From a virus (lineage: Duplodnaviria; Heunggongvirae; Uroviricota; Caudoviricetes): 64,000 bases of DNA. The position numbers were made by a program, and so were the translations under genes. Positions 8,626 to 50,429 of the stretch are shown here, one piece after another. How positions within the stretch are numbered: the stretch's first letter is position 1; each line of letters begins with the position of its first letter. The DNA is taken from IMG/VR virus record IMGVR_UViG_3300031555_002005; one strand, written 5' to 3'. The notes below the pieces were generated by a model that saw nothing but the letters and a program-made list of their open reading frames with translations, had not been told where the DNA came from and ran no database searches.

Positions 8626-9044
8626 TGAGCGAAAGAGAGAATTTTATTGTCGTCAATGGTCAAAAATATTATACCGGAACTGTTTTTCTGATTGATTTTC
8701 ATGGTAAGGTACAAGAGGCATCTTTTGTCTGCACTGTTGTCAAGACAAATAGAGTTCGATGTAAACTTGCTAACTCTTACTGGTTTATACATGCTGACGA
8801 TTTTCGCAAAAGAATTGTTGAGATCACAGATAAGGTTGATTCCAGTGTGCACATGCCCGTTACCAAAACAATGAAAGACACTGAGATTGGCAGCCTGTTT
8901 ATTGGCTGGCTGTGGTATATTTTTCTTATGGCAATTAGCACGATTTTTAAAAATGCAATTGGACTGTGGTGTTTTATTTCTTGGGTGTTTTTTACTTGGA
9001 GAGCTAAGAAAATAAAAGAGGAGGGGACTTACATTGAGTGGTAG
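8619..9044 (+). CDS. membrane protein (C-terminal TM helices)
   Basis: Hydrophobic C-terminus. Confidence 0.5.
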   Translation: MLMSERENFIVVNGQKYYTGTVFLIDFHGKVQEASFVCTVVKTNRVRCKLANSYWFIHADDFRKRIVEITDKVDSSVHMPVTKTMKDTEIGSLFIGWLWYIFLMAISTIFKNAIGLWCFISWVFFTWRAKKIKEEGTYIEW

Positions 9045-10008
9045 ACTTGAAAAAGAAAGACAAATCGAACAGCAGGTCATGAAAAAACTTGACTCTATGC
9101 CTTCTATCTTAACAGACTATTATTATAGTTTAATTGGTGCAGGCAAATCATATAGAACTGCAAAAGTATATATAGAAAATGTAATTCAGTTTGTAAAATT
9201 TACATTTGGAAAAAATATTAAAGAAGACTTTTATTCTAGTGTGAACGCAATCCATATCAATAGATATATTGCTTCTCTGAGAACAAAGACTGTAAAAGGA
9301 AAAACGGAGCGCACATCTGATAGTCACAAAACATTAAATTGGTCTTCTTTAAATTCGTTTTTTCAATTCTTGGTTCCAGATTATATTTCCACAAACCCTG
9401 TGGCAAATACAAAAAGACCCAAAATGAAAGATAATCCAAATGTTACATTCTTGGACACGGAAGAAATGGCAAAAATCTTTAAAAATGTTAAAGAAAAAGC
9501 GAATCCACGAATGTTAAATAGAGATATGTGCCTTTTAAAACTTGGGTTTGCTACGGGCTTACGTATTTCTGCAATAGTACAAATTGATATTGATGATTTA
9601 GATTTAAAACGTAATCAAATCAGAATTACAGAAAAGGGAGATCATGACGATTATGTGATTATAGGAGATAATCTTAAAGCGCAAGTTGAACTGTGGCTAA
9701 AAGACAGAGAGGAATATTTTAGTGATGTAAACAGTAATGCTCTGTTTGTTTCGCAAGAAAAGAATAGACTTAGCGCACGATCTGTTAAGGATTTAATGGA
9801 TAAATATACACTTGGCGCAACTGATAAAAAGGTTACACCTCATGTAATGCGTCACTCTTGTGCGACAAATTTGTATGAAAAAACTGGAGATATTTATCTG
9901 TGTGCAAGACAGTTACATCATAAAAATGTATCTACAACACAGAGATATGCTGAGCTGTCTAAAGAGAAACAGAAAAAGGCGGCGAATATTCTTGATGACA
10001 TGATTTGA
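9034..10008 (+). CDS. tyrosine recombinase/integrase (XerD-like)
   Basis: R...HxxR...Y catalytic residues (GLRISA, HVMRHSCAT, TQRYAE); GAGGAGGGG RBS; TTG start. Confidence 0.75.
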   Translation: MSGRLEKERQIEQQVMKKLDSMPSILTDYYYSLIGAGKSYRTAKVYIENVIQFVKFTFGKNIKEDFYSSVNAIHINRYIASLRTKTVKGKTERTSDSHKTLNWSSLNSFFQFLVPDYISTNPVANTKRPKMKDNPNVTFLDTEEMAKIFKNVKEKANPRMLNRDMCLLKLGFATGLRISAIVQIDIDDLDLKRNQIRITEKGDHDDYVIIGDNLKAQVELWLKDREEYFSDVNSNALFVSQEKNRLSARSVKDLMDKYTLGATDKKVTPHVMRHSCATNLYEKTGDIYLCARQLHHKNVSTTQRYAELSKEKQKKAANILDDMI

Positions 10009-10042
10009 CAAGAATATGATTATTCCAACAATTACAAATTGA

Positions 10043-10071
10043 CAAACACGTGTTCGCAATGTATAATATTC
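10043..10071 (+). promoter_or_regulatory. sigma-A-type promoter
   Basis: TTGACA-N17-TATAAT. Confidence 0.55.
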
Positions 10072-10090
10072 CACGAAGGGGTGGCAAACA

Positions 10091-11005
10091 ATGTATCAAT
10101 CTGAAATGAAAGAGGGTTTTATAAAAGACTATATGAGATCAAGGGTGGTTGCTCGAACGTCTTTATATAGTTTATTCAGAAAAACAGAACCATTTGAAGA
10201 AGAGAATAAAAAGGATTGCAGTCAGTTCAATCAAGATGAAGCTTTATCTATGTACACAAAATTTAAAGCAAAATCAATTTATGTGCTTCTTAATTATAAT
10301 ACAATTTTAAAAGCTTATTGTGCATGGAGACACTATTACCATAAAGAAAAAGTTACGGACTCATATGACAATACTACTATAGAATTACTGAAACCATGTG
10401 TCCCAGAAGATAGTAATAAGTTTTTATCAAGAGAAGAAATAATAGAAATAGAAGATCAATTATATAATTGGACCGACAAGGCAATTGTAGAGTGTTTATG
10501 GGAAGGTATTTCTGGACCAAGTATGATTGACTTGGTGAATATCAATAGATCTATGGTCGATTTTAAGGAAAAGGAAATGTACTTTTCAGACGGAAGAATA
10601 ATTGAATTAACTGATAGGTTATGTGAGCTTTTAAACAAGACATTTGATGAAATTGAGTATATGTGCTACGGAGAATCATTAAGAGTTAAAAAGCTTGTTG
10701 GAATTGGCAATCTATACAAAGAAAGAGATAATGCGCATGCAACAGATTCAAATGATAAATATTTCAGATGGGTGTATAGGAAAGTACAAAATTTTAGAGA
10801 TCATGTTGGTATCCCCGGACTAACCATGAAAAATATACACATATCTGGTATGTATCATTATTTGTGTCAAGGGATGCAAGAAACTGGGCTTGACCTGAAA
10901 AGCTTCTTGAAATCTCAAGATGGTGCGGAATTGGCTTGTAAATATGGTTTTCATTCAGATAGTTACGTAGATAATTTAACACACCGCTTTAAAGATTTTG
11001 TTTAA
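10091..11005 (+). CDS. hypothetical protein (304 aa)
   Basis: GAAGGGG RBS. Confidence 0.55.
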   Translation: MYQSEMKEGFIKDYMRSRVVARTSLYSLFRKTEPFEEENKKDCSQFNQDEALSMYTKFKAKSIYVLLNYNTILKAYCAWRHYYHKEKVTDSYDNTTIELLKPCVPEDSNKFLSREEIIEIEDQLYNWTDKAIVECLWEGISGPSMIDLVNINRSMVDFKEKEMYFSDGRIIELTDRLCELLNKTFDEIEYMCYGESLRVKKLVGIGNLYKERDNAHATDSNDKYFRWVYRKVQNFRDHVGIPGLTMKNIHISGMYHYLCQGMQETGLDLKSFLKSQDGAELACKYGFHSDSYVDNLTHRFKDFV

Positions 11006-12071: not shown

Positions 12072-12944
12072 ATGGAGGAAATTAATAATGGCGTTTTAAC
12101 AATACAAAAAATTTCAAATGAAAAACAAAATTGGTGTGTTTATTTACATACAAACAAAATAAATGGGAAGAAATATGTTGGTATCACTGGCCAAAATCCA
12201 GAAGATAGATGGAGAAGAGATGGTAAAGGATACAGAACTCAAAAGTATTTTTGGAGAGCAATTCAGAAATATGGATGGAACAACTTTAAACATGAAGTTG
12301 TTTTATATAACGAAACTTTTAAATACGCATGTGCCGTAGAAAAATGTTTAATAAAGCATTATAAATCTAATGATCCAAGGTATGGTTATAATCTTACTGA
12401 TGGTGGCGAAGGCGTTTCTGGTAGAACTCCATGGAATTATGGAATACCAATGTCTGACGAAATGAAAGAAATAATACGGAAAGCAAATACTGGGAGAAAA
12501 ATATCCGAAGAAACACGTAAAAAATTAATTAATGCAAAAAAGGGTAAGCCTCCCAATAACGCAGGGCGTCCAATGTCAGACGAAACAAAAAGAAAATTGT
12601 CAATGTCGCTTATTGGACGAGTGTTTGATGATGAGACAAAACAAAAAATTAGCAATTCCAAAAAAGGAAAATACACAGGCGTAGATAGCTCTAGACATCA
12701 CCCAATTTATTGCGTTGAATTAAATGAAATTTTTTGGGGTGCAAAGGCTGTGAAAGATAAGTATGGTTTTACCACATGTAATATTGGAGCATGTTGTAGA
12801 GGAGAGCGAAATTATGCCAATAAACATCCAGACACCGGAGAGAAGCTTCATTGGATCTATTGTGATGATGCAATAAAAAATGGATATATTACATCATTTC
12901 AACTTGATAATTACTATAAAGGATTAATGGACAAAGGAGATTAA
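12072..12944 (+). CDS. GIY-YIG homing endonuclease (I-TevI-like)
   Basis: NWCVYLHTN...KKYVGIT GIY-YIG motif plus NUMOD-like repeats; start codon uncertain. Confidence 0.75.
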   Translation: MEEINNGVLTIQKISNEKQNWCVYLHTNKINGKKYVGITGQNPEDRWRRDGKGYRTQKYFWRAIQKYGWNNFKHEVVLYNETFKYACAVEKCLIKHYKSNDPRYGYNLTDGGEGVSGRTPWNYGIPMSDEMKEIIRKANTGRKISEETRKKLINAKKGKPPNNAGRPMSDETKRKLSMSLIGRVFDDETKQKISNSKKGKYTGVDSSRHHPIYCVELNEIFWGAKAVKDKYGFTTCNIGACCRGERNYANKHPDTGEKLHWIYCDDAIKNGYITSFQLDNYYKGLMDKGD

Positions 12945-17547: not shown

Positions 17548-18603
17548 TTGGAACAAATCAATAATAATTGGTGTGTTTATATGCACACCAATATCATAAA
17601 TAATAAAAAATATATTGGAATTACGTGCAAGAAGCCAGAACATAGGTGGAATGAAGGCAAAGGATATAAACATAATAGATATTTTTGGAATGCAATTCAA
17701 AAATATGGTTGGGAAAATTTTAAACATGAAATTGTTTCATTTAACCTCTCTCACGATGATGCTTGTAAAATGGAAAAATATTTAATCGCTTATTATAGCT
17801 CGAATAATTCGATATATGGTTATAATCTTACAAGTGGTGGAGATAGTGGGTTTTTACATACTGAAGAAACAAAAGAGAGAATAAGACAAGCTAATAGTGG
17901 TATAAGCAATGCAATGTACGGTATTTCTCCAAAAGAACGAATGGATGAAGATACGTACAAACAATGGCTTTATAAGCAACAGACAAATAAACCACACGGT
18001 GAAGATAATCCACAATATGGTGTATCTCCAAAAGAGAGAATGGATGAAACAACATACCAAGAATGGTTGTACAAACAGAAAAATAACAAGCCAAAAGGGA
18101 AAGACCATCCTATGTATGGAGTGTCGCCACAGGAGCGAATGGACGAAGATACATACAAAAATTGGTTGGAAAAAATGAAAAATCCAGCCAAAAGCATATC
18201 TGTTAAGTGCATTGAAACAGATAAAATATATAAAAGTGCAAGAGAAGCAGAAAGAGAAACAGGAATTGCACACAGTTCAATTGTGAAGTCTTGTATGTCA
18301 GAAGATCATTCGGTAATTGCTGGCGGATTTCATTGGTGTTTGGGCAGCGATAATTTTTCTATGGAGGATCTTGGCTTAGAATATAAAGGTAAGAGGTACA
18401 TTAGGTGCATAGAGACTAATCGTATTTATAAAACAGCCAGAGAAGTTAAGAGAGAAACAGGTTTGGATGACTCATCCATTAACAAATGTTGCAAGGGATA
18501 TTATTTCAAAACAGTTGGTGGCCTTCATTGGGAATATATTTATTTGCTTCCAGAACAATACGAAGAATGGTGCAAAACCAACAACTTAACAACACAAAAT
18601 TAA
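17548..18603 (+). CDS. GIY-YIG homing endonuclease
   Basis: NWCVYMHTN...KKYIGIT; three tandem 32-aa linker repeats. Confidence 0.75.
   Translation: MEQINNNWCVYMHTNIINNKKYIGITCKKPEHRWNEGKGYKHNRYFWNAIQKYGWENFKHEIVSFNLSHDDACKMEKYLIAYYSSNNSIYGYNLTSGGDSGFLHTEETKERIRQANSGISNAMYGISPKERMDEDTYKQWLYKQQTNKPHGEDNPQYGVSPKERMDETTYQEWLYKQKNNKPKGKDHPMYGVSPQERMDEDTYKNWLEKMKNPAKSISVKCIETDKIYKSAREAERETGIAHSSIVKSCMSEDHSVIAGGFHWCLGSDNFSMEDLGLEYKGKRYIRCIETNRIYKTAREVKRETGLDDSSINKCCKGYYFKTVGGLHWEYIYLLPEQYEEWCKTNNLTTQN
17917..18190 (+). repeat. three tandem roughly 96-nt repeats within the GIY-YIG endonuclease gene
   Basis: YG(I/V)SPKERMDE(D/T)TY..WLYKQ repeated three times. Confidence 0.6.
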
Positions 18604-19726: not shown

Positions 19727-20254
19727 ATGAACCTAACAAAAGTAAGTAAATATATTAGTTTAATTTTGCGCCATAAGCCAGAAACAATTGGCATCAGCCT
19801 TGATGAGCATGGCTGGGCCAATGTAAAGGATCTTATTGATGGCGTAAATAAAACTCACAAGCTAGATATGAAAATGCTTGAAGAGATTGTAGCAACAGAT
19901 GATAAGCAGCGCTATTCTTTCAATGAAGATAAGACTATGATTCGTGCCAATCAGGGGCATTCTATTGATGTAGACGTGGAACTTGAAGAAGCTGTGCCTC
20001 CTGAGATGCTTTGGCATGGAACTGGTGTTAAATACATGAAGAGCATTGATACAGAGGGGCTTATTCCTAAGTCCAGATTGTATGTGCATTTGTCTACTGA
20101 TCCTAATACGGCAATGGAGGTCGGTAAGAGACATGGTGCACCTATGATTTACTGCATTGATGCGCTAAGAATGCATGAAGATGGATATAAGTTTTACAAA
20201 TCCAAGAACGGTGTGTGGTTAACTAAACATGTGCCTGCGGAGTATTTTAGGTAA
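19727..20254 (+). CDS. kptA: RNA 2'-phosphotransferase (Tpt1/KptA family)
   Basis: Strong similarity to E. coli KptA: LRHKPE, GW..V..L, RANQGHS, LWHGT, YVHLS, NGVWLT motifs. Confidence 0.85.
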   Translation: MNLTKVSKYISLILRHKPETIGISLDEHGWANVKDLIDGVNKTHKLDMKMLEEIVATDDKQRYSFNEDKTMIRANQGHSIDVDVELEEAVPPEMLWHGTGVKYMKSIDTEGLIPKSRLYVHLSTDPNTAMEVGKRHGAPMIYCIDALRMHEDGYKFYKSKNGVWLTKHVPAEYFR

Positions 20255-20714: not shown

Positions 20715-21509
20715 ATGCCCAAATTTTTTGTAAGTTCTGATATTCATAGTGCATATACTCCGTGGATGAAGGCATTAAAAGAAGCGGGTTTTGATGAAAA
20801 CAATCCTAGTCACAAAATTGTCGTATGCGGAGATTTGTTCGATAGACTGGATGAATCTATTCAGGTGTACGATTTTGTTAAGGACATGCTTGAAAAAGAT
20901 AAGTTAATTTACGTAAAAGGAAATCACGAAAGTCTAATGGAAGAATGCCTTGAAAGAGGATACCCTGGAAGGCATGATTGGTCAAATGGTACGGCAAAAT
21001 CTATTATTGACCTCGTTCCCCATGCAGAGAATTTTTATGATGGTTGCGCCGTCGTACGTGAAAAAATGAAATCTTTGTGGGGCAAGACTGTCAATTATTT
21101 TGAGACTAAGAATTATATTTTTGTACATGGCTGGATCCCGGTTATTTGCAAGGATAATTTGCCTAGCTATTATACTAGAAATAGAAAGTTTGAATTTAAC
21201 CCAGAGTGGCGTCATGCGCACTTTTCTGAGTGGGAACAGGCTAGATGGTTAAACGGTATGGATATGGCCAGAAAAGGCTTTGTGGAGCCTGAGAAGACTA
21301 TTGTATGCGGACACTGGCATTGCAGCTATGGTCATATGATGGATGATATGGCTAAGAATGGCCCATTTGATTGTATTGATGAATTTGGAGAAACTGCAAT
21401 TTGGGAACCTTATTATGGAAATGGTATAATTGCAATTGATCGCTGCACTGCACATACTGGAGAGGTTAATGTTCTTGTCATTGAGGATGAACTGTTGGAG
21501 GAATTATGA
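20715..21509 (+). CDS. calcineurin-like metallophosphoesterase (candidate 2',3'-cyclic phosphodiesterase/phosphatase)
   Basis: GDLFDR and GNHE motifs; AAGGAGG RBS. Confidence 0.7.
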   Translation: MPKFFVSSDIHSAYTPWMKALKEAGFDENNPSHKIVVCGDLFDRLDESIQVYDFVKDMLEKDKLIYVKGNHESLMEECLERGYPGRHDWSNGTAKSIIDLVPHAENFYDGCAVVREKMKSLWGKTVNYFETKNYIFVHGWIPVICKDNLPSYYTRNRKFEFNPEWRHAHFSEWEQARWLNGMDMARKGFVEPEKTIVCGHWHCSYGHMMDDMAKNGPFDCIDEFGETAIWEPYYGNGIIAIDRCTAHTGEVNVLVIEDELLEEL

Positions 21510-22777: not shown

Positions 22778-22854
22778 GCTCTAGTAGCTCAGTTGGTTAG
22801 AGTATTCGCCTGATAAGCGAAAGGTCGGCTGTTCAAGTCAGCCCTAGAGCACCA
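22778..22854 (+). tRNA. tRNA-Ile (GAU), CCA encoded
   Basis: Acceptor GCTCTAG/CTAGAGC; anticodon loop CTGATAA. Confidence 0.8.
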
Positions 22855-22857
22855 AAT

Positions 22858-22983
22858 GACGGTGTAGCTCAGTTGGAAGAGCAATAGCCTTTGTCAGATG
22901 CAGGCTTGCACTAATTCAGTTCGATTCTGAAGTTTGGCACCATAAGCTATGGGTCGAGAGTTCGAGCCTCTCCACCGTCACCA
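22858..22983 (+). tRNA. interrupted tRNA. A 57-nt anticodon loop (about 50 extra nt) contains a tRNA-like minihelix ending in CCA. Would be tRNA-Lys (UUU) if the insert is excised.
   Basis: Acceptor GACGGTG/CACCGTC; D-arm; anticodon stem ATAGC/GCTAT separated by 57 nt; T-arm GAGAG-TTCGAGC-CTCTC; CCA encoded. Confidence 0.55.
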
Positions 22984-23009
22984 AAAGAAATGGAGTTTAT
23001 TATGTATCA

Positions 23010-23265
23010 TTCTTATTCTTGGAAGAAACATCATGATTGGGTTAAAGCGATAAGGAAAAGAAAAGTTGCAAAAGACATTTTCCCTTTTTATGACGAATGC
23101 CCCGAATTACATAAGCTCCATCATTATTCTAAAAATAAATTTCATTGTGTTTGGACTTATTCTCCGAAAACAAAGCAGAATGGAATTTATAACTACAAAG
23201 TAAGTGACATGCGAAAAATCCAAAGATTATTTGATTCTAAAAAAGAATATGATATGGTCCCTTAG
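23010..23265 (+). CDS. hypothetical protein inside the tRNA array
   Basis: AAATGGAG RBS; stop overlaps the start of tRNA-Asn. Confidence 0.4.
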
Positions 23266-23331
23266 CTCAGTTGGCAGAGCAATAGGCTGTTAACCTATGT
23301 GTCGCTGGTTCGAGCCCAGCAGGGATCGCCA
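23256..23331 (+). tRNA. tRNA-Asn (GUU), CCA encoded
   Basis: Anticodon loop CTGTTAA; good cloverleaf. Confidence 0.8.
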
Positions 23332-23450: not shown

Positions 23451-23604
23451 ATCCCAGTAGCTCAGCTGGATAGAGCAACGGTCTTCGGGGAGTTCGTTAA
23501 AAGGTAAGATACTTTAGGATAAAACCTAAGGAGATTACAGTTCGAGTCTGTTGCTCCCCACCATAAACCGTAGGTCGGGGGTTCGAGTCCCTCCTGGGAT
23601 ACCA
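23451..23604 (+). tRNA. interrupted tRNA. An 87-nt anticodon loop (23483-23569) contains a nested tRNA-like element (23487-23563). Would be tRNA-Arg (UCU) if the element is excised.
   Basis: Acceptor ATCCCAG/CTGGGAT; D-arm GCTC..GAGC; anticodon stem ACGGT/ACCGT separated by 87 nt; T-arm GGGGG-TTCGAGT-CCCTC; CCA encoded. Confidence 0.55.
23487..23563 (+). ncRNA. nested tRNA-like element inside the anticodon loop (acceptor GGGGAGT/GCTCCCC, anticodon arm TTAGG-ATAAAAC-CCTAA, T-arm, CCA)
   Basis: Folded by hand; ends ACCA; flanked by CTTC and TAA, which would join into a 7-nt loop CTTCTAA. Confidence 0.4.
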
Positions 23605-23896: not shown

Positions 23897-24541
23897 ATGG
23901 AACAGAAGAAAAAAGATTATTCCAAGTATAGAAAAAAGTATTGGAGAGAACAAATAAAACATAGAGGTGTTCAATTTCTAGGTGGTGTGTGTCGTAATTG
24001 CGGAGGCGCTTTTGAAGATTGTTGCTATGATTTTCATCATTTAAATCCAAAAGAAAAAGACTTCACGATTGGAAATGTACAAACTAACGGAGCAAAAAGT
24101 TGGTTTAAAGTACGTGACGAATTAAAGAAGTGTGTACTATTATGTGCGAACTGTCATCGTCTTGCTCATGCAGGACTAATTGAAACAGATCTTCAGTTAT
24201 ATTTTAATGATGAATACTATGAATGGGATTTGACAAAATTTAAACTAATTGATTCATCAACTGGTTTGCCCAAGGATGCAAATATTACATGTCCTATATG
24301 CGGACAATACAAATCTCCAAATGCAAATAAATGTTCAGAGTGTGCAATGAAAGAGCAAATAAGATTTGAAGTCTCACGAGAAGAATTAAAAGAAATGATA
24401 TACACTATGGCATTTACTGATATTGGTAAAAAATATGGGGTTTCTGATAATTCTATTAGAAAAAGATGTGAAAAATTTGGATTACCATCTTACAAGAAAG
24501 ATATTCTAAAATACTCACCAGAAGAGTGGGCATCTATTTAG
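23897..24541 (+). CDS. HNH homing endonuclease
   Basis: HHLNPKEKD...CANCHRLAH. Confidence 0.75.
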   Translation: MEQKKKDYSKYRKKYWREQIKHRGVQFLGGVCRNCGGAFEDCCYDFHHLNPKEKDFTIGNVQTNGAKSWFKVRDELKKCVLLCANCHRLAHAGLIETDLQLYFNDEYYEWDLTKFKLIDSSTGLPKDANITCPICGQYKSPNANKCSECAMKEQIRFEVSREELKEMIYTMAFTDIGKKYGVSDNSIRKRCEKFGLPSYKKDILKYSPEEWASI

Positions 24542-25214: not shown

Positions 25215-25700
25215 ATGAATATTGAACAAGTAATTCTTTATAAAAGAATCGAAAAAGTACTTAAGAATTACCTAATAAATGACTTGGGTGATTCACAAAT
25301 GAAGAAAAAGGAAAGCTATTGTTTGAATTGTGGAGTTTCTATACCAAATAGAAATAAATATTGCTCAAACAAATGCCAACTAGATTTCCAATATAAAGAG
25401 TATATACAGAGATGGAAAAATGGGCTTGAAGATGGTATGAGAGGTGAATATCTTATATCAGTACACATTAGAAAATATTTAATGGAAAAGTTTGATAACA
25501 AATGCTCAAAATGTGGATGGGGAGAAATAAATCCTTATACCAAAAATGTACCACTAGAAGTCCATCATAAAGATGGAGATTATACCAATAATTCAGAAGA
25601 CAATCTTGACTTACTATGTCCAAATTGTCACTCATTAACAGAAACATATAAAGCTGCAAATAAAGGCAATGGAAGAAAAGATCGTAAAAAATACACATAA
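25215..25700 (+). CDS. HNH homing endonuclease
   Basis: EVHHKDGD...NLDLLCPNCH. Confidence 0.7.
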   Translation: MNIEQVILYKRIEKVLKNYLINDLGDSQMKKKESYCLNCGVSIPNRNKYCSNKCQLDFQYKEYIQRWKNGLEDGMRGEYLISVHIRKYLMEKFDNKCSKCGWGEINPYTKNVPLEVHHKDGDYTNNSEDNLDLLCPNCHSLTETYKAANKGNGRKDRKKYT

Positions 25701-27128: not shown

Positions 27129-27216
27129 TGGGGATTCGCCTAGAGGCTAAGGGCGGCGGGCTTTGACCCCGTTTGGAGAAATCCTATCGTGTGTTCGAAT
27201 CACACATCCCCAACCA
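27129..27216 (+). tRNA. tRNA (anticodon UUG, Gln-like) with an atypically long variable arm
   Basis: Acceptor TGGGGAT/ATCCCCA; anticodon loop CTTTGAC; T-arm GTGTG-TTCGAAT-CACAC. Confidence 0.5.
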
Positions 27217-27322: not shown

Positions 27323-27922
27323 TTGACATTGGCGAAACATGTAACTACAGAAGAAATAGCAACAAGAATAAAAAATACTTTTAAACAAAATGTTTCATTA
27401 GTTGGAGAATATAAGAATAAACGATCAAAATTAACATTACATTGTAATGATTGTGGACATGAATGGGAATCTCCATCAAGTAGTGTTATATATGGAGATA
27501 GACACGAGTGTCCTCGGTGTGGAAGACATGCAAAACAATTGAATGAATTTCAATGTACAAACTGTGGACAAGTTGTGTATCGTAAAGATTCAGACATTAA
27601 AAAGAATCAAACAGGTAATTTCTTTTGTTCTCAACAATGTGGAAATGAGTTTAAAAATCGAATACGAAAAGAAAGTGGAGAATGGGATAACTCGTTAAGC
27701 TATAGACGGAAAGCATTTGAAACTTATGAACATTTATGTTGTGTATGCGGTTGGAATGAAGATGAAAGAATTTTAGAAGTTCATCATAAAGATGAAGATC
27801 GTACAAACAATATGGTAAATAATCTATGTATTCTATGTCCTACATGTCATAGAAAAATAACATTAGGATATTATGAATTAACAGATGATTTCAAGCTAGT
27901 TGATAAAAATCAAAAGAATTAA
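27323..27922 (+). CDS. HNH homing endonuclease (start uncertain)
   Basis: EVHHKDEDRTNN...CPTCHRK; N-terminal CxxC pairs. Confidence 0.65.
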   Translation: MTLAKHVTTEEIATRIKNTFKQNVSLVGEYKNKRSKLTLHCNDCGHEWESPSSSVIYGDRHECPRCGRHAKQLNEFQCTNCGQVVYRKDSDIKKNQTGNFFCSQQCGNEFKNRIRKESGEWDNSLSYRRKAFETYEHLCCVCGWNEDERILEVHHKDEDRTNNMVNNLCILCPTCHRKITLGYYELTDDFKLVDKNQKN

Positions 27923-28582: not shown

Positions 28583-28712
28583 GCGGAAGTAGCTCAGCTG
28601 GGAGAGCAATAGTATTTATTTAAAAATGTGTTTAGATTAACACTAACAGCAATTTTTATTTAAAGAAGAAGTTGGGGACTATGGGTCGTAGGTTCGAGCC
28701 CTACCTTCCGCA
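28583..28712 (+). tRNA. interrupted tRNA: 64-nt anticodon loop carrying the ACAGCAATTTTTA motif
   Basis: Acceptor GCGGAAG/CTTCCGC; D-arm GCTC-AGCTGGGA-GAGC; anticodon stem ATAGT/ACTAT separated by 64 nt; T-arm GTAGG-TTCGAGC-CCTAC. Confidence 0.5.
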
Positions 28713-28724
28713 TCAACTAAATAT

Positions 28725-28852
28725 GCCAGAGTAGCTCAGTTGGTAGAGCACGTATATATCAACCAACGTGGTATGAAAATTTCACGCACAGCAATTTTAA
28801 TGATTCTTGCCTTTTAAGCACGTTGTCGTGGGTTCGAGTCCCATCTCTGGCA
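28725..28852 (+). tRNA. interrupted tRNA: about 55 extra nt between the D- and T-arms carrying the ACAGCAATTTTA motif
   Basis: Acceptor GCCAGAG/CTCTGGC; D-arm GCTC-AGTTGGTA-GAGC; T-arm GTGGG-TTCGAGT-CCCAT. Confidence 0.45.
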
Positions 28853-28862
28853 AACTTTATAT

Positions 28863-28981
28863 GGCGCAATGGTGTAATGGTAGCACAACGTAATAATTGA
28901 GGTTTGTTAAAATCTTAAACTGCAATTTTACAATGCATGATCACGCCGTAGGTTGAAGTTCGATTCTTCATTGCGTCTCCA
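28863..28981 (+). tRNA. interrupted tRNA-like: about 45 extra nt carrying a CTGCAATTTTA motif; CCA encoded
   Basis: Acceptor GGCGCAA/TTGCGTC; D-arm GTGT-AATGGTA-GCAC; T-arm TGAAG-TTCGATT-CTTCA. Confidence 0.4.
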
Positions 28982-28997
28982 AATTAACAATTAAATA

Positions 28998-29118
28998 AAG
29001 GCACATACAGCAATTTTAAATTCTGAAGCAGCCATTTTGCTTTGTAGTATAACTGGTTAGTACGCAGGACTGATAATCCTGAAATGCTGGTTCGAGTCCA
29101 GTCTTTAAAAATGTGCCT
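28998..29118 (+). ncRNA. 9-bp-stem-enclosed unit: the motif plus a tRNA-like 3' three-quarter (anticodon arm CAGGA-CTGATAA-TCCTG, T-arm)
   Basis: Outer stem AAGGCACAT/ATGTGCCTT; no canonical acceptor pairing found. Confidence 0.35.
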
Positions 29119-29353
29119 TGCAATTAAAAGAGAGACGAACAGCAAATTGATTGAATTAAAGAAGATAGAAAACTTATTTACTAATTATTGTTGTTTTATT
29201 TATGTATTAGATTATTTATCACTTTTAAGTCTCTCGAATAAATAAAATCTCCAAAGACGCTAACAGCAATGTACGACTTGACTGCAAATCAATAATCGTA
29301 AAATGCGTCTTGGATTTTAGTAATAAAATCAAAACTTTTAGGAGGAACAAAAA

Positions 29354-30907
29354 ATGGAATTTATGAGTGCAGTTAGACAGACTCTCAATAATGAGTACAA
29401 TGTGTCTATCACTGAGAACGGCGCAGTTGGTTATAGAACCACTGGCAAGGAGCTGCTTGACCTGAACTTTGCAGTAGCATCTCTTCGTAAGATGACCGAT
29501 GCAGAAGTCGCAAAGAGATTCAAGAAGGCTTTTTGTGAAGATCAGGTTCTCGCAATGAAGTGGCTGTTCTACGCAAGAGACGTTCGTGGTGGTTTGGGTG
29601 AGCGTAGACTGTTCAGAGTTGTTCTGGCAGATCTGGTACAGTCCAATCCTGAAATGGTTATTCCTGTCATGAATCTGATTCCTGAGTATGGTCGCTACGA
29701 TGACCTGTGGTGTCTGTTAGATGACAAGGAAGCAGCTAATGTGATTTATCAGATTGTTGATAATCAGCTGAAGCGTGACTGGGAAAACATGGCTTCAAAG
29801 AAGCCTATTTCTATTCTGGCAAAGTGGATGCCTTCTATCAATGCATCTTCTGCTAAGACCAAGGAATACGGAAAGAAGCTGTGCAAGGCTCTGAAGATGA
29901 CTGAGCGTGAATACCGCAAGGCTCTGAGCAAGCTTCGTGCATATCTGGATGTTGTTGAAGTTAAGATGTCCGATAAGAACTGGTCTGCAATTAAGTATGA
30001 AGCAGTTCCTTCTCGTGCAAATCTGATTTACAACAGCGCATTCCTGAGAAATGACGAAGCAAGACGTAGAGAATATCTTGGCCAGCTTGAAAAGGGCGAG
30101 ACTAAGATTAACGCATCTACTCTGTTCCCTCACGATATTGCTCATAAGTATACTAACAACTCATGGGGTCGTGGTCTAAAGGCAAAGGATGCAACCATTG
30201 AAGCTCTGTGGAAGGCGCTACCTGACACTGTAAATGGCTGTGGTAATACTATTGTTGTTGCTGACGGCTCTGGTAGTATGACTTGCACTGTTGACAATCA
30301 CTCTCGTGTTACTGCACTTGAAGTTGCAAACGCACTGGCAATTTACTTTGCTGAGCACTCTTCTGGTCAGTTCAAGGATAAGTACATTACTTTCTCTGAA
30401 AGACCTCAGTTTGTTGACTTCAGCAATTGTAAGACTCTGCATGACAAGCTACACACTGCACTAATGCATAATGAAGTTGCAAATACTAACATCGAAAAGG
30501 TGTTTGATTTGATTCTGACTTCTGCGGTCAATAACCATATGCATCAGGAAGATCTTCCTCAGAACATCCTGATCATCTCTGATATGGAGTTTGATAGCTG
30601 TGCAACTTCTGGCAATGTTGATCGTTGGAGCTACCGTAACAGACCTACTCAGAAGCTATTCGATGTTATCGCTCAGAAGTACGCAAGAGCAGGTTACAAG
30701 ATGCCTCGTCTGGTATTCTGGAATGTAAACTCTCGCACTGGTACTATTCCTGTAAAGGAAAATGACCTTGGTGTGGCACTGGTCAGCGGTTTCTCTGTAA
30801 ACGTTGCCAAGATGGTCATGAGTGGCAAGACTGATCCTTTCGAGTGTCTGCTTGAAACTCTGAACTCTGAGAGATATGCTCCTGTTGAGGAAGCTTTAAA
30901 TCAGTAA
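29354..30907 (+). CDS. vWA-domain protein (DUF2828-like; possibly a Ro60/TROVE-related RNA-binding protein)
   Basis: MIDAS motif VVADGSGSM in the C-terminal half; helical N-terminal domain; GGAGG RBS. The family assignment is from memory. Confidence 0.5.
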   Translation: MEFMSAVRQTLNNEYNVSITENGAVGYRTTGKELLDLNFAVASLRKMTDAEVAKRFKKAFCEDQVLAMKWLFYARDVRGGLGERRLFRVVLADLVQSNPEMVIPVMNLIPEYGRYDDLWCLLDDKEAANVIYQIVDNQLKRDWENMASKKPISILAKWMPSINASSAKTKEYGKKLCKALKMTEREYRKALSKLRAYLDVVEVKMSDKNWSAIKYEAVPSRANLIYNSAFLRNDEARRREYLGQLEKGETKINASTLFPHDIAHKYTNNSWGRGLKAKDATIEALWKALPDTVNGCGNTIVVADGSGSMTCTVDNHSRVTALEVANALAIYFAEHSSGQFKDKYITFSERPQFVDFSNCKTLHDKLHTALMHNEVANTNIEKVFDLILTSAVNNHMHQEDLPQNILIISDMEFDSCATSGNVDRWSYRNRPTQKLFDVIAQKYARAGYKMPRLVFWNVNSRTGTIPVKENDLGVALVSGFSVNVAKMVMSGKTDPFECLLETLNSERYAPVEEALNQ

Positions 30908-31006: not shown

Positions 31007-31073
31007 GTGGAGTCCTGGGTAAGACTTAAAACTGCCCATTCAGACATTAACAGCAAACAATAATTACTTGGTT

Positions 31074-31148
31074 GCGAGGTTAGCTTAGCTGGTCTAAAGC
31101 AATAGATGTGAAAATCTATGATCACTGGTTCGAACCCAGTACCTTGTG
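31074..31148 (+). tRNA. tRNA-like with a non-canonical (6- or 8-nt) anticodon loop; identity undetermined; no CCA
   Basis: Acceptor GCGAGGT/ACCTTGT with G-U pairs; D-arm GCTT..AAGC; ATAGA-TGTGAAAA-TCTAT; T-arm ACTGG-TTCGAAC-CCAGT. Confidence 0.4.
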
Positions 31149-31176
31149 TTTAAGTGATAATGTCTAGTTTCTATAT

Positions 31177-33957: not shown

Positions 33958-34049
33958 CCAGCAATGGCGAAAATGGTAAACGCAGTCCGCAGTAGGATTG
34001 CCTGATAGCGCAGTCGGGCATGATAGTTCAAGTCTATCTTGCTGGGCCA
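33958..34049 (+). tRNA. tRNA-like with an enlarged 25-nt anticodon loop; CCA encoded
   Basis: Acceptor CCAGCAA/TTGCTGG; D-arm GCG..CGC; stem GTCCG/CGGGC separated by 25 nt; T-arm GATAG-TTCAAGT-CTATC. Confidence 0.35.
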
Positions 34050-40123: not shown

Positions 40124-41509
40124 ATGGCTTATACAGCATTTATTACAAGAATTAAGAATCTGCGTACACACCCTAAGGCGGATCGACTGCAGATGGGTGA
40201 GTGCTTTGGTAACACTGTAATTGTCTCTCTGGAATACGAGGACAACCAGCTTGGCATTTACTTCCCTTCTGATGGACAGATTAGCACTGCATTTGCAGAA
40301 GCAAATAACCTGCTTCGCAAGAAGGATGAAAACGGCAATAACATTGGCGGTTACATGGATCCCGACAAGCGCAACGTCACTGCTATTAAGCTTCGTGGAG
40401 AAAAGTCTGATGGCCTGTTCCTGCCTCTGAAGTCTCTTGAGCCTTTTGGTGACATTACCACTCTGCGTGAGGGTGACCGAATTGATAACTTTAATGGACA
40501 TGAGATTTGCTGCAAGTATGTACCTTTTAAGCGTGAACGTACTGCCGCAGGTGGAGCAGGAAAGCGCATTAAGCGTAGAGCTAAGAGAAGCATTGCACCT
40601 CTGTTTTATGAGCATATGGACACTGAGCAGCTCGCCTACAATCTGGCAGCTTTTAAGCCCGGTGACGAGATTGAAATCACTCTAAAGATGCATGGCACTT
40701 CTCAGCGAACTGCACACCTACCTGTGTTTAAGGACTACAAGCGCACAATCTGGGACAAACTATTCCGTCGTGAAGGTACTCCTGTTTATGATTGGGGTTA
40801 CGTCTCTGGCACTCGTCGTACTGTTCTAGAGAATTTTGAAGGTGGATATTATGGATCTAACGAGTTCCGTGAAGCACATTCTAAGTTCTTTGAGGGCAAG
40901 CTGTGGAAGGGCGAAGAGGTCTACTACGAGGTGGTTGGTTTCACTCATACTGGCGCACCTATTATGTCTACGGCAGACAATAAGAAGCTGAACGACAAGG
41001 AGTTTGTTAAGCAGTATGGAAAGACTACTACTTTCTCTTATGGTTGTGCCCCTGATGGTGTAAATTCCGCAGATGGAGTTATTCCTCAGTCTGATATCTA
41101 CGTTTACCGTATGACAATGACCAATGAAGATGGTGATGTTGTCGAGTACACTCCTGATTTCATGCGCTATCGTTGTGAGCAGATGGGTGTTAAGACTGTC
41201 CCTGTGATGTGGAAGGGCACTATTCCTTACGCAGATTGGCTTGAAGCTAACACGTGGGAAAGCGCAGGGCATTATGCAATTACTCGTGCAGAAAAGTACT
41301 ATGATGGTCCCGACCCTATTGGCAAGACTCATGTCCGTGAAGGCGTTGTAGTTCGTATTCTGAACCGTCCTAAATTCTGTGCATACAAGCATAAGAACTG
41401 GTCTTTCAAGGCTCTTGAAGGAATTGTTAAGGTTGAAGCTGAGGCTCCTGATATGGAAGAAGCCGATGGCATTAATGAGGAAGTGATGACTGATGAATTT
41501 TCACAGTGA
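40124..41509 (+). CDS. RNA ligase (Rnl2/Rnl5-type nucleotidyltransferase) fused to an N-terminal EMAP/Trbp111-type tRNA-binding OB domain
   Basis: N-terminus HPKADRL...SDGLF resembles a tRNA-binding OB fold. Ligase motif I LKMHGTS (KxHG), motif IV EGVVVR, motif V KHKNWSFK. Confidence 0.7.
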   Translation: MAYTAFITRIKNLRTHPKADRLQMGECFGNTVIVSLEYEDNQLGIYFPSDGQISTAFAEANNLLRKKDENGNNIGGYMDPDKRNVTAIKLRGEKSDGLFLPLKSLEPFGDITTLREGDRIDNFNGHEICCKYVPFKRERTAAGGAGKRIKRRAKRSIAPLFYEHMDTEQLAYNLAAFKPGDEIEITLKMHGTSQRTAHLPVFKDYKRTIWDKLFRREGTPVYDWGYVSGTRRTVLENFEGGYYGSNEFREAHSKFFEGKLWKGEEVYYEVVGFTHTGAPIMSTADNKKLNDKEFVKQYGKTTTFSYGCAPDGVNSADGVIPQSDIYVYRMTMTNEDGDVVEYTPDFMRYRCEQMGVKTVPVMWKGTIPYADWLEANTWESAGHYAITRAEKYYDGPDPIGKTHVREGVVVRILNRPKFCAYKHKNWSFKALEGIVKVEAEAPDMEEADGINEEVMTDEFSQ

Positions 41510-42302
41510 TGAATGGATCATGCGGAATGTTCGAGAGCACTACAACGAGGCTCTCGAACACTTCCCCGAAGATAGAATTGTAGGTATCTTTTATCAGGGC
41601 AGCGGTAACTACGGCCTTGACTATGAAGGTTCTGATGTAGACACCAAGCTGATTGTCACGCCAACCTTTGAAGATATTGCAATGAATAAAAAGGCAGTAA
41701 GTACAACTCATATCAGAGAGAATGAAGAGCACATCGATTTTAAGGATATTAGACTCTATATCCAGACTTTCAGAAAGCAAAACTTGAACTTCCTAGAAAT
41801 CCTGTTTACTAAATATGCAATTATCAATCCTATGTATAAAGATGAATGGGATAGACTTGTAAAGGCTCGTGAGAAAATTGCACGCTATGCACCTGTACAG
41901 GCTATTAAGTCTATGAAGGGCATTGCAAAAGAAAAGTATCATGCAATGGAACATCACTATCCTGCACGAATGGCATGGATTGAGAAGTTTTCTTACGATC
42001 CGAAACAACTGCATCATCTACTGAGAGTTAATGAATATATCAGCAGATACATTGACGGCGAATCATATGAAGATTGCTTGATTTCAAAAATGCCAGACTA
42101 TTTACAGTCAGTAAAACTTGGTTTTCACAACCTGGATGATGCTCGCATGATTGCTAATTGGGCTATTGGCTGTATTGATAAAATGTGCGATAAGTATCTA
42201 GAGACTTGTTCAACTGAAGTTGATAAAGATGTTGATGTTCTACTTGATGATGTGCAGTACAACATTATGAAGATTGCTATTAAGAAAGAAATTGGTGATT
42301 AA
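41493..42302 (+). CDS. Pol-beta-superfamily nucleotidyltransferase
   Basis: GSGNYGLDYEGSDVDTKL NTase signature. Confidence 0.6.
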   Translation: MNFHSDEWIMRNVREHYNEALEHFPEDRIVGIFYQGSGNYGLDYEGSDVDTKLIVTPTFEDIAMNKKAVSTTHIRENEEHIDFKDIRLYIQTFRKQNLNFLEILFTKYAIINPMYKDEWDRLVKAREKIARYAPVQAIKSMKGIAKEKYHAMEHHYPARMAWIEKFSYDPKQLHHLLRVNEYISRYIDGESYEDCLISKMPDYLQSVKLGFHNLDDARMIANWAIGCIDKMCDKYLETCSTEVDKDVDVLLDDVQYNIMKIAIKKEIGD

Positions 42303-42303
42303 A

Positions 42304-43200
42304 ATGAACAGACCTAGTTTAATTTTACTTGTCGGAATTCCCGGCTCAGGCAAAACTACATACGCAGAAAAATATATTAAAGAGAATCCCAATACAGTAC
42401 ATCTTTCCTCCGACAAGATTCGTGAAGAACTTTGGGGTAATGAAGCTACTCAGGGCGACAACAACAAAGTGTTTTCTCTGATGCAGTCTAGAGCAATTGA
42501 AGCACTGAATAACGGACAGTCTGTGGTATATGACGCTACGAACATTACAAGAAAAGACAGATCTTACATTATCACTCTTTGCCCTAAGTTTGCTAAGATT
42601 GAGTGCCATATTATTTGGGCACCTATTGAGACTTGCATCGAGAGAGACGCTGCCAGAGAACGCACTGTTGGCAAGGAAGTCATTGATAGAATGCTTAAGC
42701 GATTCCAGGCACCTTATTATGATGAAGGGTTTGATGGTATCTATATTCGTTATTCTGATGACAATTTTAATGCAAAAGAATACAGTAAAAAGATAGTTAT
42801 GAACATGGATATCCCTCATGATAACCCTCATCACACTTTGAATATTTTAGATCATTGTGCTGAAGCAGGATCATATTTTTATGAAAGAGGTCAGTATGAC
42901 GAAGTGTGGGTGGCAGCTATGTATCATGACATAGGAAAACCATACGTAAAAGCATTTGTTGATAGCAAAGGTAATCCTTGTGAGAATGCTCATTACTACC
43001 AGCATCAATGTTTGGGTTCATATATGTATTATGGAATGACTAGTGAAATTGGTGGTACTAGTGACACATGGGTAAAAATTGCTTGGCTGATTTCCACACA
43101 TATGGATCCTTATCTAAATACGAAATATTACAATAGACTTCCTGCTTATCTAAAGAAACAGGTAGATTTGCTTCACGAGGCGGACAGGAATGCACATTAA
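42304..43200 (+). CDS. pnk: polynucleotide 5'-kinase fused to a C-terminal HD-domain phosphoesterase (RNA end-healing enzyme)
   Basis: Walker A LLVGIPGSGKTTYA as in T4 Pnk; C-terminal H...HD motifs (HHTLNILDH, MYHDIGK). Confidence 0.7.
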   Translation: MNRPSLILLVGIPGSGKTTYAEKYIKENPNTVHLSSDKIREELWGNEATQGDNNKVFSLMQSRAIEALNNGQSVVYDATNITRKDRSYIITLCPKFAKIECHIIWAPIETCIERDAARERTVGKEVIDRMLKRFQAPYYDEGFDGIYIRYSDDNFNAKEYSKKIVMNMDIPHDNPHHTLNILDHCAEAGSYFYERGQYDEVWVAAMYHDIGKPYVKAFVDSKGNPCENAHYYQHQCLGSYMYYGMTSEIGGTSDTWVKIAWLISTHMDPYLNTKYYNRLPAYLKKQVDLLHEADRNAH

Positions 43201-44049: not shown

Positions 44050-44069
44050 TTTGATTGGAGAATAATATT

Positions 44070-49937: not shown

Positions 49938-50429
49938 ATGGCTAAAATGTATTTAATGTGCGGTTGCAGTGGCGCAGGAAAGACAACATTTGCAAAAGAG
50001 TTTGCCAAGAAAAATAGCCTTAAGTATTTAGGTATTGATGATTTCTACGCACTAGTCAATGGTGATGAATGTATACACACTAATTCATTTGAAGTGTGGA
50101 TTGAATTTTATAAAGCAATTCATGAAGCAGAGATTAATAATCTTGACGTAGTTATTGATACAAATGCAATTACTCGTTCTCATCGTGAACAGTTTATTGA
50201 TTGGTTTCCAACTTTTGAACATCATCTAATTTACATTAAAGCTACACATGACCTAAGAAAGCAGAACAATAAATCTCGTCGCAGACAAGTTCCAGACGAT
50301 GTAATGGATAAAATGCGTGACCAATTTCAAATACCTTTGTTGAGTGAAAAGTTTAAAACAATCACAATAATTAGAAACGTTGATAATAATTTTAGAGTAC
50401 CTATTGTATTAAAAGGAGAAGCAAAATGA
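49938..50429 (+). CDS. P-loop kinase (AAA_33/zeta-like)
   Basis: MCGCSGAGKTT Walker A. Confidence 0.5.
   Translation: MAKMYLMCGCSGAGKTTFAKEFAKKNSLKYLGIDDFYALVNGDECIHTNSFEVWIEFYKAIHEAEINNLDVVIDTNAITRSHREQFIDWFPTFEHHLIYIKATHDLRKQNNKSRRRQVPDDVMDKMRDQFQIPLLSEKFKTITIIRNVDNNFRVPIVLKGEAK

Follow-up and report, generated by a model that had tools for sequence, protein, structure and literature searches.

Nested tRNA genes in a large phage

The stretch of DNA analyzed here (hereafter the window; 64,000 nucleotides of IMG/VR virus record IMGVR_UViG_3300031555_002005, Caudoviricetes) belongs to a large phage whose DnaE-type polymerase is closest to that of Clostridium phage Amboise (47% identity), and carries at positions 22858-22983 a tRNA-Lys(UUU) gene whose anticodon loop is interrupted by a 50-nt tRNA-like insert. 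The outer gene has an acceptor stem of GACGGTG (22858-64) paired with CACCGTC (22973-79), a D-arm (TAGCTCAGTTGGAAGAGCA), a T-arm (GAGAG-TTCGAGC-CTCTC) and an encoded CCA at 22981-83 preceded by A73. Its anticodon-stem strands, ATAGC (22884-88) and GCTAT (22946-50), are separated by 57 nt made up of CTTT (22889-92), the insert (22893-22942) and TAA (22943-45). An earlier sequence-only reading of this DNA had placed the acceptor stem, D-arm, T-arm, CCA and 57-nt gap correctly to the base, and exact removal of the insert reproduces the loop CUUUUAA that it had proposed, giving tRNA-Lys(UUU) with the anticodon split between nucleotides 35 and 36. Only the closing stem of the insert needs correction, from the 6 bp originally described to 7 bp, three of them G.U pairs. 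The Infernal comparison with Rfam that the same reading had suggested places the outer gene in the tRNA family: model RF00005 aligns it over positions 1-71 with 55.8 bits (gathering score 29) and takes 53 nt of the anticodon loop as an insertion. ARAGORN in its default mode did not find the gene, and identifies the spliced sequence as tRNA-Lys(ttt). The predicted exon-exon junction of the spliced tRNA reads ...AUAGCCUUUUAAGCUAU... (junction k-mer AGCAATAGCCTTTTAAGCTATGGGTC).

Over-long tRNA matches in the Rfam scan of the window led to a second nested gene, a tRNA-Arg(UCU) located 470 nt downstream (Table 1), with orthologs in the related loci L325 and L326. Its anticodon stem is ACGGU/ACCGU and excision of the insert yields the loop CUUCUAA, that of tRNA-Arg(UCU); the insert alone registers in ARAGORN as tRNA-???, its anticodon loop having an unusual length of 6 nt. 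ARAGORN finds 21 tRNAs in the window, with no other Lys or Arg tRNA gene among them, and the nested Lys gene is the sole Lys(UUU) gene of the phage within the window.

Table 1. Features of the nested tRNA locus and of the candidate ligation and repair genes (window coordinates unless a locus is named)
Feature	Position	Strand	Content and evidence
Exon 1 of nested tRNA-Lys(UUU)	22858..22892	+	Acceptor 5' strand, D-arm, anticodon-stem 5' strand ATAGC, loop nt 32-35 (CUUU); sequence; Rfam tRNA alignment 55.8 bits; own covariance model R1 68.2 bits
tRNA-like insert (putative intron), 50 nt	22893..22942	+	7-bp stem GUCAGAU/GUUUGGC, small hairpin GCAGGCUUGC, T-arm-like UUCAG-UUCGAUU-CUGAA, A73, CCA; sequence; four homologues; same architecture in 74 distinct genes
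Exon 2 of nested tRNA-Lys(UUU)	22943..22983	+	Loop nt 36-38 (UAA), GCUAU, variable loop, T-arm, acceptor 3' strand, A73, encoded CCA; Rfam alignment; exon 1 + exon 2 = tRNA-Lys(ttt), 76 nt (ARAGORN)
Small basic ORF, 91 aa	22990..23265	+	Begins 7 nt past nested Lys gene
Nested tRNA-Arg(UCU)	23451..23604	+	Rfam 52.4 bits with 80-nt loop insertion; spliced = tRNA-Arg(tct) (ARAGORN)
Nested Arg exon 1	23451-23486	+	Ends CUUC
Nested Arg insert	23487-23563	+	77-nt cloverleaf-like RNA, 6-nt 'anticodon' loop, ends ACCA
Nested Arg exon 2	23564-23604	+	Starts UAA
Tpt1/KptA RNA 2'-phosphotransferase	19727..20254	+	PF01885, E=3e-48; R-H-R-R tetrad intact; 2.6 kb upstream of nested Lys
Calcineurin-like metallophosphoesterase	20715..21509	+	PF00149, E=1e-13; possible 2',3'-phosphate healing
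ATP-dependent RNA ligase, candidate exon joiner	40124..41509	+	phrog_968 'RNA ligase', E=9e-66
RlaP-like Pol-beta nucleotidyltransferase	41493..42302	+	PF10127 weak; phrog_388, E=3e-17
Polynucleotide 5'-kinase (P-loop)-HD phosphohydrolase fusion (Pnk-HD), end healing	42274..43200	+	AAA_33, E=1e-27, plus HD domain
Small-ORF family members in other loci	L015 6991-7368(-), L090 3935-4318(-), L099 27-386, L124 203-499(-), L204 5394-5699, L187 10512-10913		

Recurrence of nested genes in uncultured phages

Relatives of the window were fetched through the DUF2828 protein encoded inside its tRNA cluster, and a third case was found there, a nested tRNA-Asn(GUU) with a 71-nt insert (L001 6937-7079). 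Further nested genes came from two pattern scans of IMG/VR, keyed on an inner T-loop followed by N, CCA, the remainder of the loop and the outer T-loop, and from loci retrieved by way of ligase and Tpt1 proteins, a selection independent of the DNA pattern. A strict detector was then run on both strands of 403 sources (5.0 Mb), demanding for the inner part an acceptor stem with at least 6/7 pairs, a hairpin of 5 bp and 7 nt, and CCA, and for the outer part a 5/5 anticodon stem, a 7-nt loop with U33 and R37, a T-arm with TTC and an acceptor stem with at least 6/7 pairs. It returned 95 matches representing 74 distinct nested genes, on contigs that are typically 100-230 kb long, compared with 0 matches for the same detector in reversed sequences, and the architecture therefore recurs far beyond chance.

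Since the discovery patterns forced CCA and GTTCRA upon the inserts, an insert-blind covariance model was built from the spliced outer tRNAs only and applied to 85 loci chosen by their proteins (1.7 Mb). This census recovered 11 distinct interrupted genes with a reconstitutable 7-nt loop, and all 11 inserts run from the 5' end of an acceptor stem to N73-CCA (CAA in one variant), indicating that the rule by which the insert is a tRNA-like element ending in CCA is no search artefact.

Among 50,697 GenBank phage records, neither megablast nor blastn gave a match for the region, for the gene alone or for a rich nested locus, for a 4.5-kb concatenate of inserts spanning their junctions the matches were confined to free-standing genes for tRNA-Gly and tRNA-Thr, and no cultured phage with a nested gene turned up. 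In 185,579 genomes, one per prokaryotic species, two nested genes were found, both on contigs resembling mis-binned phage. The 'tRNA-within-tRNA' genes thus appear, as judged from these surveys, to be a widespread, phage-restricted class.

Delimitation of the insert

Restoring a loop of seven nucleotides leaves the register open, as CT joined to CATAA (Met-CAU) also fits the window gene. ARAGORN in intron mode, likewise suggested by the sequence-only reading, did detect the gene but called it Met(CAU) with an intron at position 34; this call was rejected because its register yields different anticodons in the homologues. The same insert family occurs in four diverged tRNA-Lys genes, lying between CTTT and TAA (nucleotides 35 and 36) in the window and L334, and between CTTTT and AA (nucleotides 36 and 37) in L325/L326 and L333. 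CUUUUAA is obtained in all four only if exactly the tRNA-like element is removed, whereas under any fixed-position rule the anticodons differ among the homologues and are partly nonsensical.

The same holds on the scale of the 74 genes, in which the insert lies between nucleotides 34 and 35 (15 genes), 35 and 36 (43 genes) or 36 and 37 (16 genes), and at no other site, even though the detector permitted any site from 32/33 to 37/38. The anticodon triplet is always disrupted or abutted by the insert. The flanking exon bases vary across the class while the ends of the insert are constant, and this combination of a variable site with invariant ends indicates that the intron is delimited by its own fold rather than by exon sequence or position. 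The architecture, its recurrence and this boundary rule are demonstrated here.

Structure, conservation and origin of the inserts

The window's Lys insert combines the features of a tRNA-like minihelix and an RNase P substrate, namely a 7-bp acceptor stem, a 5-bp T-stem with a 7-nt loop, N73, CCA, G1-C72 and U(-1). Among the four homologues, 56/56 pair cells of the minihelix model hold standard pairs, compared with 19-45% in a control in which the 3' partners were slid by 1-3 columns. One compensatory pair is present (the first T-stem pair, which alternates between U-A and C-G), and three one-sided changes retain pairing (G-C to G.U, G.U to G-C and U.G to U-A); covariation across these four sequences is supportive of the minihelix, if not statistically decisive. 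Identity among the four ranges from 76 to 90% in the insert and from 67 to 85% in the exons.

Class-wide, the inserts of the 74 genes measure 44-135 nt (median 66). Pair 1-72 is G-C in 54 and C-G in 17 (71/74), N73 is A in 53 and G in 11 (A or G in 64/74), the base preceding the insert, U(-1), is U in 64/74, and the hairpin loops are mostly UUCRANN. Some inserts are full tRNAs according to ARAGORN (Gly-UCC, Asp-GUC, Thr-UGU and a CUA-suppressor-like tRNA), and those of the Gly and Thr type share 85-88% identity with free-standing tRNA genes known from cultured phages, from which it follows that the inserts derive from tRNAs. They form a continuum that runs from tRNA-in-tRNA to degenerate minihelix, with the Lys insert of the window at the degenerate end.

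Two variants of nested tRNA-Ile(UAU) should also be mentioned. The inserts of L253 2476-2627 and L254 409-562 are full cloverleaf tRNAs with a CUA anticodon; they are amber-suppressor-like ('Pyl' in ARAGORN), which implies that tRNAs for stop-codon recoding may hide within other tRNA genes. The inserts of L255 910-1056 and L283 1269-1415 end in ACAA instead of ACCA and have the hairpin loop GGCAGGA, so that either CCA is dispensable or this copy is decaying.

There are also signs of mobility or gene conversion of the inserts. An identical 61-nt insert is present in two different outer Lys genes, related inserts are shared between Lys and Arg genes, and ORFs for HNH endonucleases are found in 17/51 nested loci versus 16/149 others. 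Within the window, three free-standing HNH and two GIY-YIG ORFs lie in and around the tRNA array (23897-24541, 25215-25700, 27323-27922, 12072-12944 and 17548-18603), and such endonucleases may drive the exchange of tRNA-gene and insert cassettes.

Evidence that the nested genes encode functional tRNAs

When spliced in silico, nearly all of the ~67 genuine genes (69 candidates) are recognized by ARAGORN as canonical tRNAs with the predicted anticodon; in the unspliced nested genes the outer tRNA is never called. U8, G18G19, U33 and T54-T55-C56-A58 are invariant in the spliced set, the discriminators match the reconstituted anticodon (A73 for Lys, G73 for most Asn and Gln, U73 for Gly(UCC), A73 for Ile and Leu), and the nested Leu genes carry a long variable arm.

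The nested genes are also rarely redundant. For only 1/85 nested anticodons does the locus also contain an intact twin, and among loci with at least 6 intact tRNAs, an intact Lys(UUU) gene is present in 0/26 nested-Lys loci versus 11/17 others (Fisher p=2e-6), a trend that Asn and Gln follow. Gene order points the same way. In the window it is Met-Ile-[nested Lys]-orf-Asn-[nested Arg]-Glu, L324 matches it with every gene intact (Met-Ile-Lys-Asn-Arg-Glu), and in L325 and L326 both Lys and Arg are nested. L328, the closest strain, was considered as the empty member of a clean filled/empty-site pair and rejected, as the different intact Lys in its slot represents a cassette swap and not a plus/minus allele of the intron. 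Comparison of L328 5021-5174 with window 22858-23331 shows an identical Tpt1 protein and an identical Arg 5' half, and the L328 Lys gene, which has the unusual loop CCTTTAA, occupies the slot of the window's nested Lys and small ORF, a difference that shows rapid cassette turnover within one phage population.

Taken together, this comparative evidence strongly supports a tRNA-shaped intron, and it is very likely that its removal yields tRNA-Lys(UUU). The decoy or deliberately split tRNA that the sequence-only reading had offered as an alternative is disfavoured by the retained tRNA features, the non-redundancy and the synteny.

Ligation and repair genes

The window encodes a set of enzymes that could rejoin RNA halves (Table 1). 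The putative ligase at 40124 has weak matches to PF09414 and to the OB domain of PHA02142, and its motif I is KMHG; in profile searches against the PDB its best matches, though weak, are the nucleotidyltransferase (NTase) domain of T4 Rnl2 and the N-terminal OB domain of NgrRnl, and a sequence search against the PDB gave no match. The RlaP-like gene lies beside the ligase in 68 related loci, and RlaP is reported to extend the 3'-OH of damaged RNA by 1-2 nt (PMC12776372). Pnk-HD, which is present in 69 related loci, matches Pnkp1, the C. thermocellum Pnkp kinase and T4 Pnk in the PDB. Genes 40124-43200 constitute an Rnl-RlaP-Pnk module whose gene order recurs in ~70 related loci. When only loci retrieved with the DNA pattern are considered, repair genes are present in 9/51 nested loci versus 1/85 control tRNA-array loci (p=6e-4; a comparison that is not phylogenetically independent).

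Nearer to the nested genes, the metallophosphoesterase gene adjoins Tpt1 in several assemblies. Close relatives of the Tpt1 are encoded on at least 73 phage contigs in IMG/VR, and nested tRNAs are also present in those relatives of the window that bear it (L324, L325 and L326). As a general partner of nested tRNAs, Tpt1 was rejected, given that nested tRNAs lie within 10 kb of only 3/73 Tpt1 loci.

A proposed splicing pathway

We consider it somewhat probable, from the sequences compared here, that 22858-22983 is a functional tRNA-Lys(UUU) gene spliced by RNase P, a cut at the CCA end and the phage ligase. U(-1), G1-C72, R73 and CCA are classic determinants of bacterial RNase P, and the proposal of this enzyme follows from the coincidence of the insert ends with mature tRNA ends together with U(-1), G1-C72/C1-G72, R73 and CCA. 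Host RNase P would cut 5' of the inner acceptor stem, leaving exon 1 with a 3'-OH after U35, and an enzyme resembling RNase Z/BN, or another phage or host endonuclease, would cut directly after the inner CCA and free exon 2. The outer stems (acceptor, D, anticodon and T) would keep the two halves together until they are sealed by the ligase encoded at 40124-41509, with RlaP and Pnk-HD available for imperfect ends; nucleotide addition by RlaP could allow imprecise cuts to be tolerated. The products would be a 76-nt tRNA-Lys(UUU) and a free 50-nt minihelix. Taken by itself, this order of enzymes (RNase P, CCA-end cut, phage ligase) is the best-supported mechanism, and we regard its chances as about evenly balanced.

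Several observations weigh against this pathway. The 3' cut is its weak point: B. subtilis RNase Z is inhibited by CCA, to our knowledge a cut after CCA has been reported only for T. maritima RNase Z and E. coli RNase BN, and no candidate for the nuclease emerged among the small ORF and ten further ORF clusters enriched near nested genes, of which only a second RNA-ligase family, a metallophosphoesterase and ClpP could be identified. Pnk-HD, metallophosphoesterase and Tpt1 would be superfluous for the ends left by RNase P and RNase Z (3'-OH and 5'-P), and their joint presence hints at a chemistry of 2',3'>P and 5'-OH ends. In this phage group the repair module is frequent with or without nested tRNAs in the neighbourhood, and its association statistics are not phylogenetically independent. 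About one fifth of the inserts have non-canonical 'T-loops' (GGCAGCA, GUCAUCA, UGCAAGA), and the bias of discovery patterns that demanded CCA and GTTCRA is only partly lifted by the blind census. The minihelix is also not part of the minimum free energy (MFE) fold of the unspliced gene (-42.4 versus -34.3 kcal/mol for the double-tRNA model), which retains the outer stems and the insert's closing stem and misfolds both T-arms; MFE folding misfolds the spliced tRNA likewise, so that thermodynamics alone is uninformative here. Finally, it should be noted that we infer every enzymatic step, and splicing itself.

On a reasonable reading, phages able to reseal breaks in anticodon loops can tolerate or exploit inserts that are cut by host processing enzymes. 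A more far-reaching and only tentative extension holds that the nested genes represent a third kind of tRNA intron with a third splicing pathway (RNase P, a CCA-measuring nuclease and a repair ligase), and that they arose at broken anticodon loops. A mature tRNA (5'-P...CCA-3'OH) would have been ligated by the repair system into an anticodon loop broken by an anticodon nuclease of the host, and the ligated RNA then copied back into DNA, for which the reverse transcriptase of the window (RVT_1, E=9e-22, 1208-2467) might be relevant. Such a retro-insertion would explain why the inserts are exactly mature tRNAs why they occupy positions 34-37 only, and why they are found preferentially in typical nuclease targets (Lys-UUU, Gln-UUG, Glu-UUC, Asn, Ile, Leu and Arg).

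Alternative scenarios

Three other scenarios compete with splicing by RNase P, a CCA-end cut and the phage ligase.

1. The insert is an intron, but is removed by healing and sealing of its flanks. Pnk-HD and/or the metallophosphoesterase would heal the ends and the ATP-dependent ligase would seal them; in this phage, Tpt1 would then strip the junction 2'-phosphate, as in fungal and plant tRNA splicing. The complete set of healing and sealing genes (Pnk-HD, metallophosphoesterase, Tpt1 and ligase) lies within 25 kb of the nested genes, NAD salvage genes and a Thg1-like enzyme are also encoded in the window, and the close relatives that bear Tpt1 likewise have nested tRNAs. Nevertheless, we regard this scenario as unlikely. 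None of the other nested and ligase loci contains Tpt1, so that the co-occurrence expected of a Trl1+Tpt1-type system is not seen; only three of the 73 Tpt1 loci have nested tRNAs at a distance of 10 kb or less, and outside this lineage the names of the Tpt1 contigs, compared by eye, did not match those of nested contigs. Furthermore, no candidate endonuclease was found, insert ends that equal mature tRNA ends are more simply produced by tRNA end-processing enzymes, and published work accounts for the same kit as a means of countering host defence by anticodon nucleases (PMC7824862).

2. No splicing takes place. The gene may be a cassette that yields an inner RNA (a decoy, a regulator or a tRNA) along with two halves, or a tRNA gene killed by a mobile insertion. 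The insert sharing between Lys and Arg genes and the HNH enrichment described above are suggestive of mobility, some inner elements are full tRNAs that probably function alone, and the same phages carry a second class of tRNA-scaffolded RNAs that have no reconstitutable anticodon. A dead gene or a mere carrier would fit poorly, however, with 74 genes that keep a 7-nt loop upon removal of the insert, U33, R37, the outer stems, the tRNA invariants and matching discriminators, or with a nested Lys that is the sole gene for its anticodon (0/26 versus 11/17) and sits in the syntenic slot of an intact Lys or Arg. We therefore judge this scenario improbable.

3. The insert is a ribozyme that cleaves or splices itself out, or else a canonical intron of the group I or bulge-helix-bulge (BHB) type. 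Group I introns are known from the anticodon loops of bacterial and phage tRNAs, and small ribozymes are common near phage tRNAs, but this scenario can very nearly be dismissed, as the insert has only 50 nt (44-135 nt class-wide), its conserved sequence is confined to the tRNA-like features, an Rfam scan of 22840-23000 with E up to 10 returned tRNA and noise only (no group I, hammerhead, twister or HDV-like match), and the junctions fall within an internal loop (4 x 7 nt) flanking a 7-bp helix and never at the canonical BHB site. The insert belongs neither to group I nor to the small ribozymes, and the sequence-only reading was right to call it too short for a group I intron, given the 50 nt and the lack of an Intron_gpI match at either the gathering threshold or E up to 10. 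A BHB motif has two 3-nt bulges with a 4-bp helix between them, and its canonical site is between nucleotides 37 and 38; the window gene shows neither.

Relation to known systems

BHB introns of archaea and eukaryotes, removed by EndA/TSEN and sealed by RtcB or Trl1+Tpt1, resemble the phage inserts in being short, non-self-splicing and located in the anticodon loop of a precursor tRNA. Two cuts and an RNA ligase are presumed here as well, and the window possesses Pnk, phosphoesterases, an ATP-dependent ligase and Tpt1, as does the fungal pathway. The phage inserts differ in that they have no bulge-helix-bulge, lie between 34/35 and 36/37, are tRNA-shaped and CCA-ended, and have mature tRNA ends. 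We know of no EndA-type splicing in bacteriophages. Group I introns also interrupt the anticodon loops of bacterial-type tRNAs, often after U, and are mobile, but they exceed 200 nt and have a conserved catalytic core (P3-P9), in contrast to a 50-nt tRNA-like insert with no group I match in Rfam.

Other parallels are found in RNA repair and RNA processing. In the T4 Pnkp/Rnl1 repair of PrrC-cut tRNA-Lys and in the Rnl-RlaP-Pnk kits of jumbo phages (PMC7824862), phage enzymes rejoin tRNA halves that are broken in the anticodon loop and kept in place by the tRNA body; tRNA-Lys(UUU) is the classic substrate, and the window carries a comparable kit. In T4, a host nuclease damages a tRNA that was whole, whereas here the interruption is gene-encoded and an RNA of 44-135 nt has to be removed first. 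In mitochondrial tRNA punctuation, the MALAT1 mascRNA and plant t-elements, RNase P and RNase Z act on a tRNA-shaped module within a transcript and thereby set the ends of its flanks. Those flanks are not religated, unlike the present ones, which are tRNA halves in need of joining, and the module here encodes its CCA. The logic of the nested genes would resemble processing of the tRNA punctuation or mascRNA type combined with anticodon-loop repair of the T4 type.

The split, permuted and multi-intron tRNAs of archaea and red algae are likewise unconventional genes that need cutting and ligation, and the archaeal tRNA-Trp intron, which contains a C/D box sRNA, includes a second functional RNA just as the nested genes include Gly, Asp, Thr and suppressor tRNAs. 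These systems rely on BHB motifs and EndA, none places one tRNA inside another, and none comes from viruses or bacteria. A search of the full-text literature, which did not cover subscription-only papers, turned up no account of tRNA-like inserts in the anticodon loops of phage tRNAs, and a survey of RNA repair in jumbo phages makes no mention of tRNA introns (PMC7824862). As far as can be told, the class is undescribed and falls outside the two known kinds of tRNA intron.

Other features of the window and its relatives

The small ORF next to the nested Lys gene belongs to a family whose cluster occurs in 7 nested loci versus 0 others, often directly beside the nested gene. The family shares the motif LHxYSKNKIHCSCPMCxxKTNNKG, which is degenerate in the window copy, and has no match in Pfam or PHROG. 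Its protein is a candidate accessory factor for nested tRNAs, although the evidence is thin.

Three odd tRNAs are located at 27129-27216, 31073-31149 and 33958-34049. One of them is an 88-nt Gln(UUG) with a long variable arm, and two tRNA-like genes have abnormal anticodon loops ('??? (ga)' and '??? (ag)' in ARAGORN). A Thg1-like 3'-5' polymerase, an NMN adenylyltransferase, an NMN transporter and an NAD-dependent DNA ligase are encoded at 44055-44903, 43261-44049 and 48768-51118. The Thg1-like gene is possibly split by, or lies beside, a LAGLIDADG endonuclease gene, its match to the tRNA-His guanylyltransferase PHROG falling into two stretches; the NMN/NAD genes and the NAD-dependent DNA ligase together form an NAD-centred module. 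Besides the reverse transcriptase, this lytic-looking large phage has tyrosine recombinase/integrase-like genes at 9034-11005.

The insert-blind census also returned a second class of over-long matches, which have no reconstitutable anticodon and are characterized by a hairpin and the motif (U)AACAGCAA. Three copies are present in the window (28583-28712, 28725-28852 and 28863-28981), and others occur at L001 9427-9672, L005 9271-9646, L300 6770-7122, L302 2187-2700, L274 1712-2267 and L311 6318-7090, with ~35 distinct copies seen. These genes have normal acceptor, D and T arms but, in place of the anticodon arm, a module of 50-65 nt that consists of a hairpin and the conserved (T)AACAGCAAnnTT, and many of them have no CCA. 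Tandem sets of 3-4 adjoin a DUF2828/DUF7788 gene (TROVE-like, phrog_850 'RNA-binding'; 29354-30907 in the window) and are often near the Rnl-RlaP-Pnk module. These RNAs are probably the tRNA-like partners of a Ro/TROVE-type ribonucleoprotein (RNP). Rfam matches to YrlA at 28.7 kb were rejected as spurious, being weak and bridging two adjacent genes. Adjacent to the window copies, at 28990-29125, a 70-nt tRNA-Ile(GAU)-like gene (29041-29110) with a poor acceptor stem lies inside an outer 7-bp stem (GGCACAT...ATGTGCC) and is preceded by CAGCAATTTTA, a motif of the same RNAs; the element may be a permuted or extended member of this class.

Implications

Standard finders miss or mis-assign the nested genes, and phage tRNA repertoires, inferences from codon usage and predictions of recoding are consequently incomplete. 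A small RNA cleanly excised from a tRNA scaffold would, in addition, be of interest to RNA engineering. If the genes are spliced as proposed, bacteria-infecting viruses would possess an undescribed tRNA splicing that depends on proteins or RNPs and in which the intron is a tRNA mimic, adding a third tRNA intron class to the group I and BHB introns and implying that RNase P and 3'-end processing can serve as a pair of splicing endonucleases. The 'RNA repair' ligases, RlaP and Pnk of phages would then have a housekeeping role. The same might apply to bacterial-type Tpt1, the substrates of which are a long-standing puzzle. For the phages themselves, the nested arrangement may tie the supply of key tRNAs to phage enzymes, or may render their precursors invisible to anticodon nucleases.

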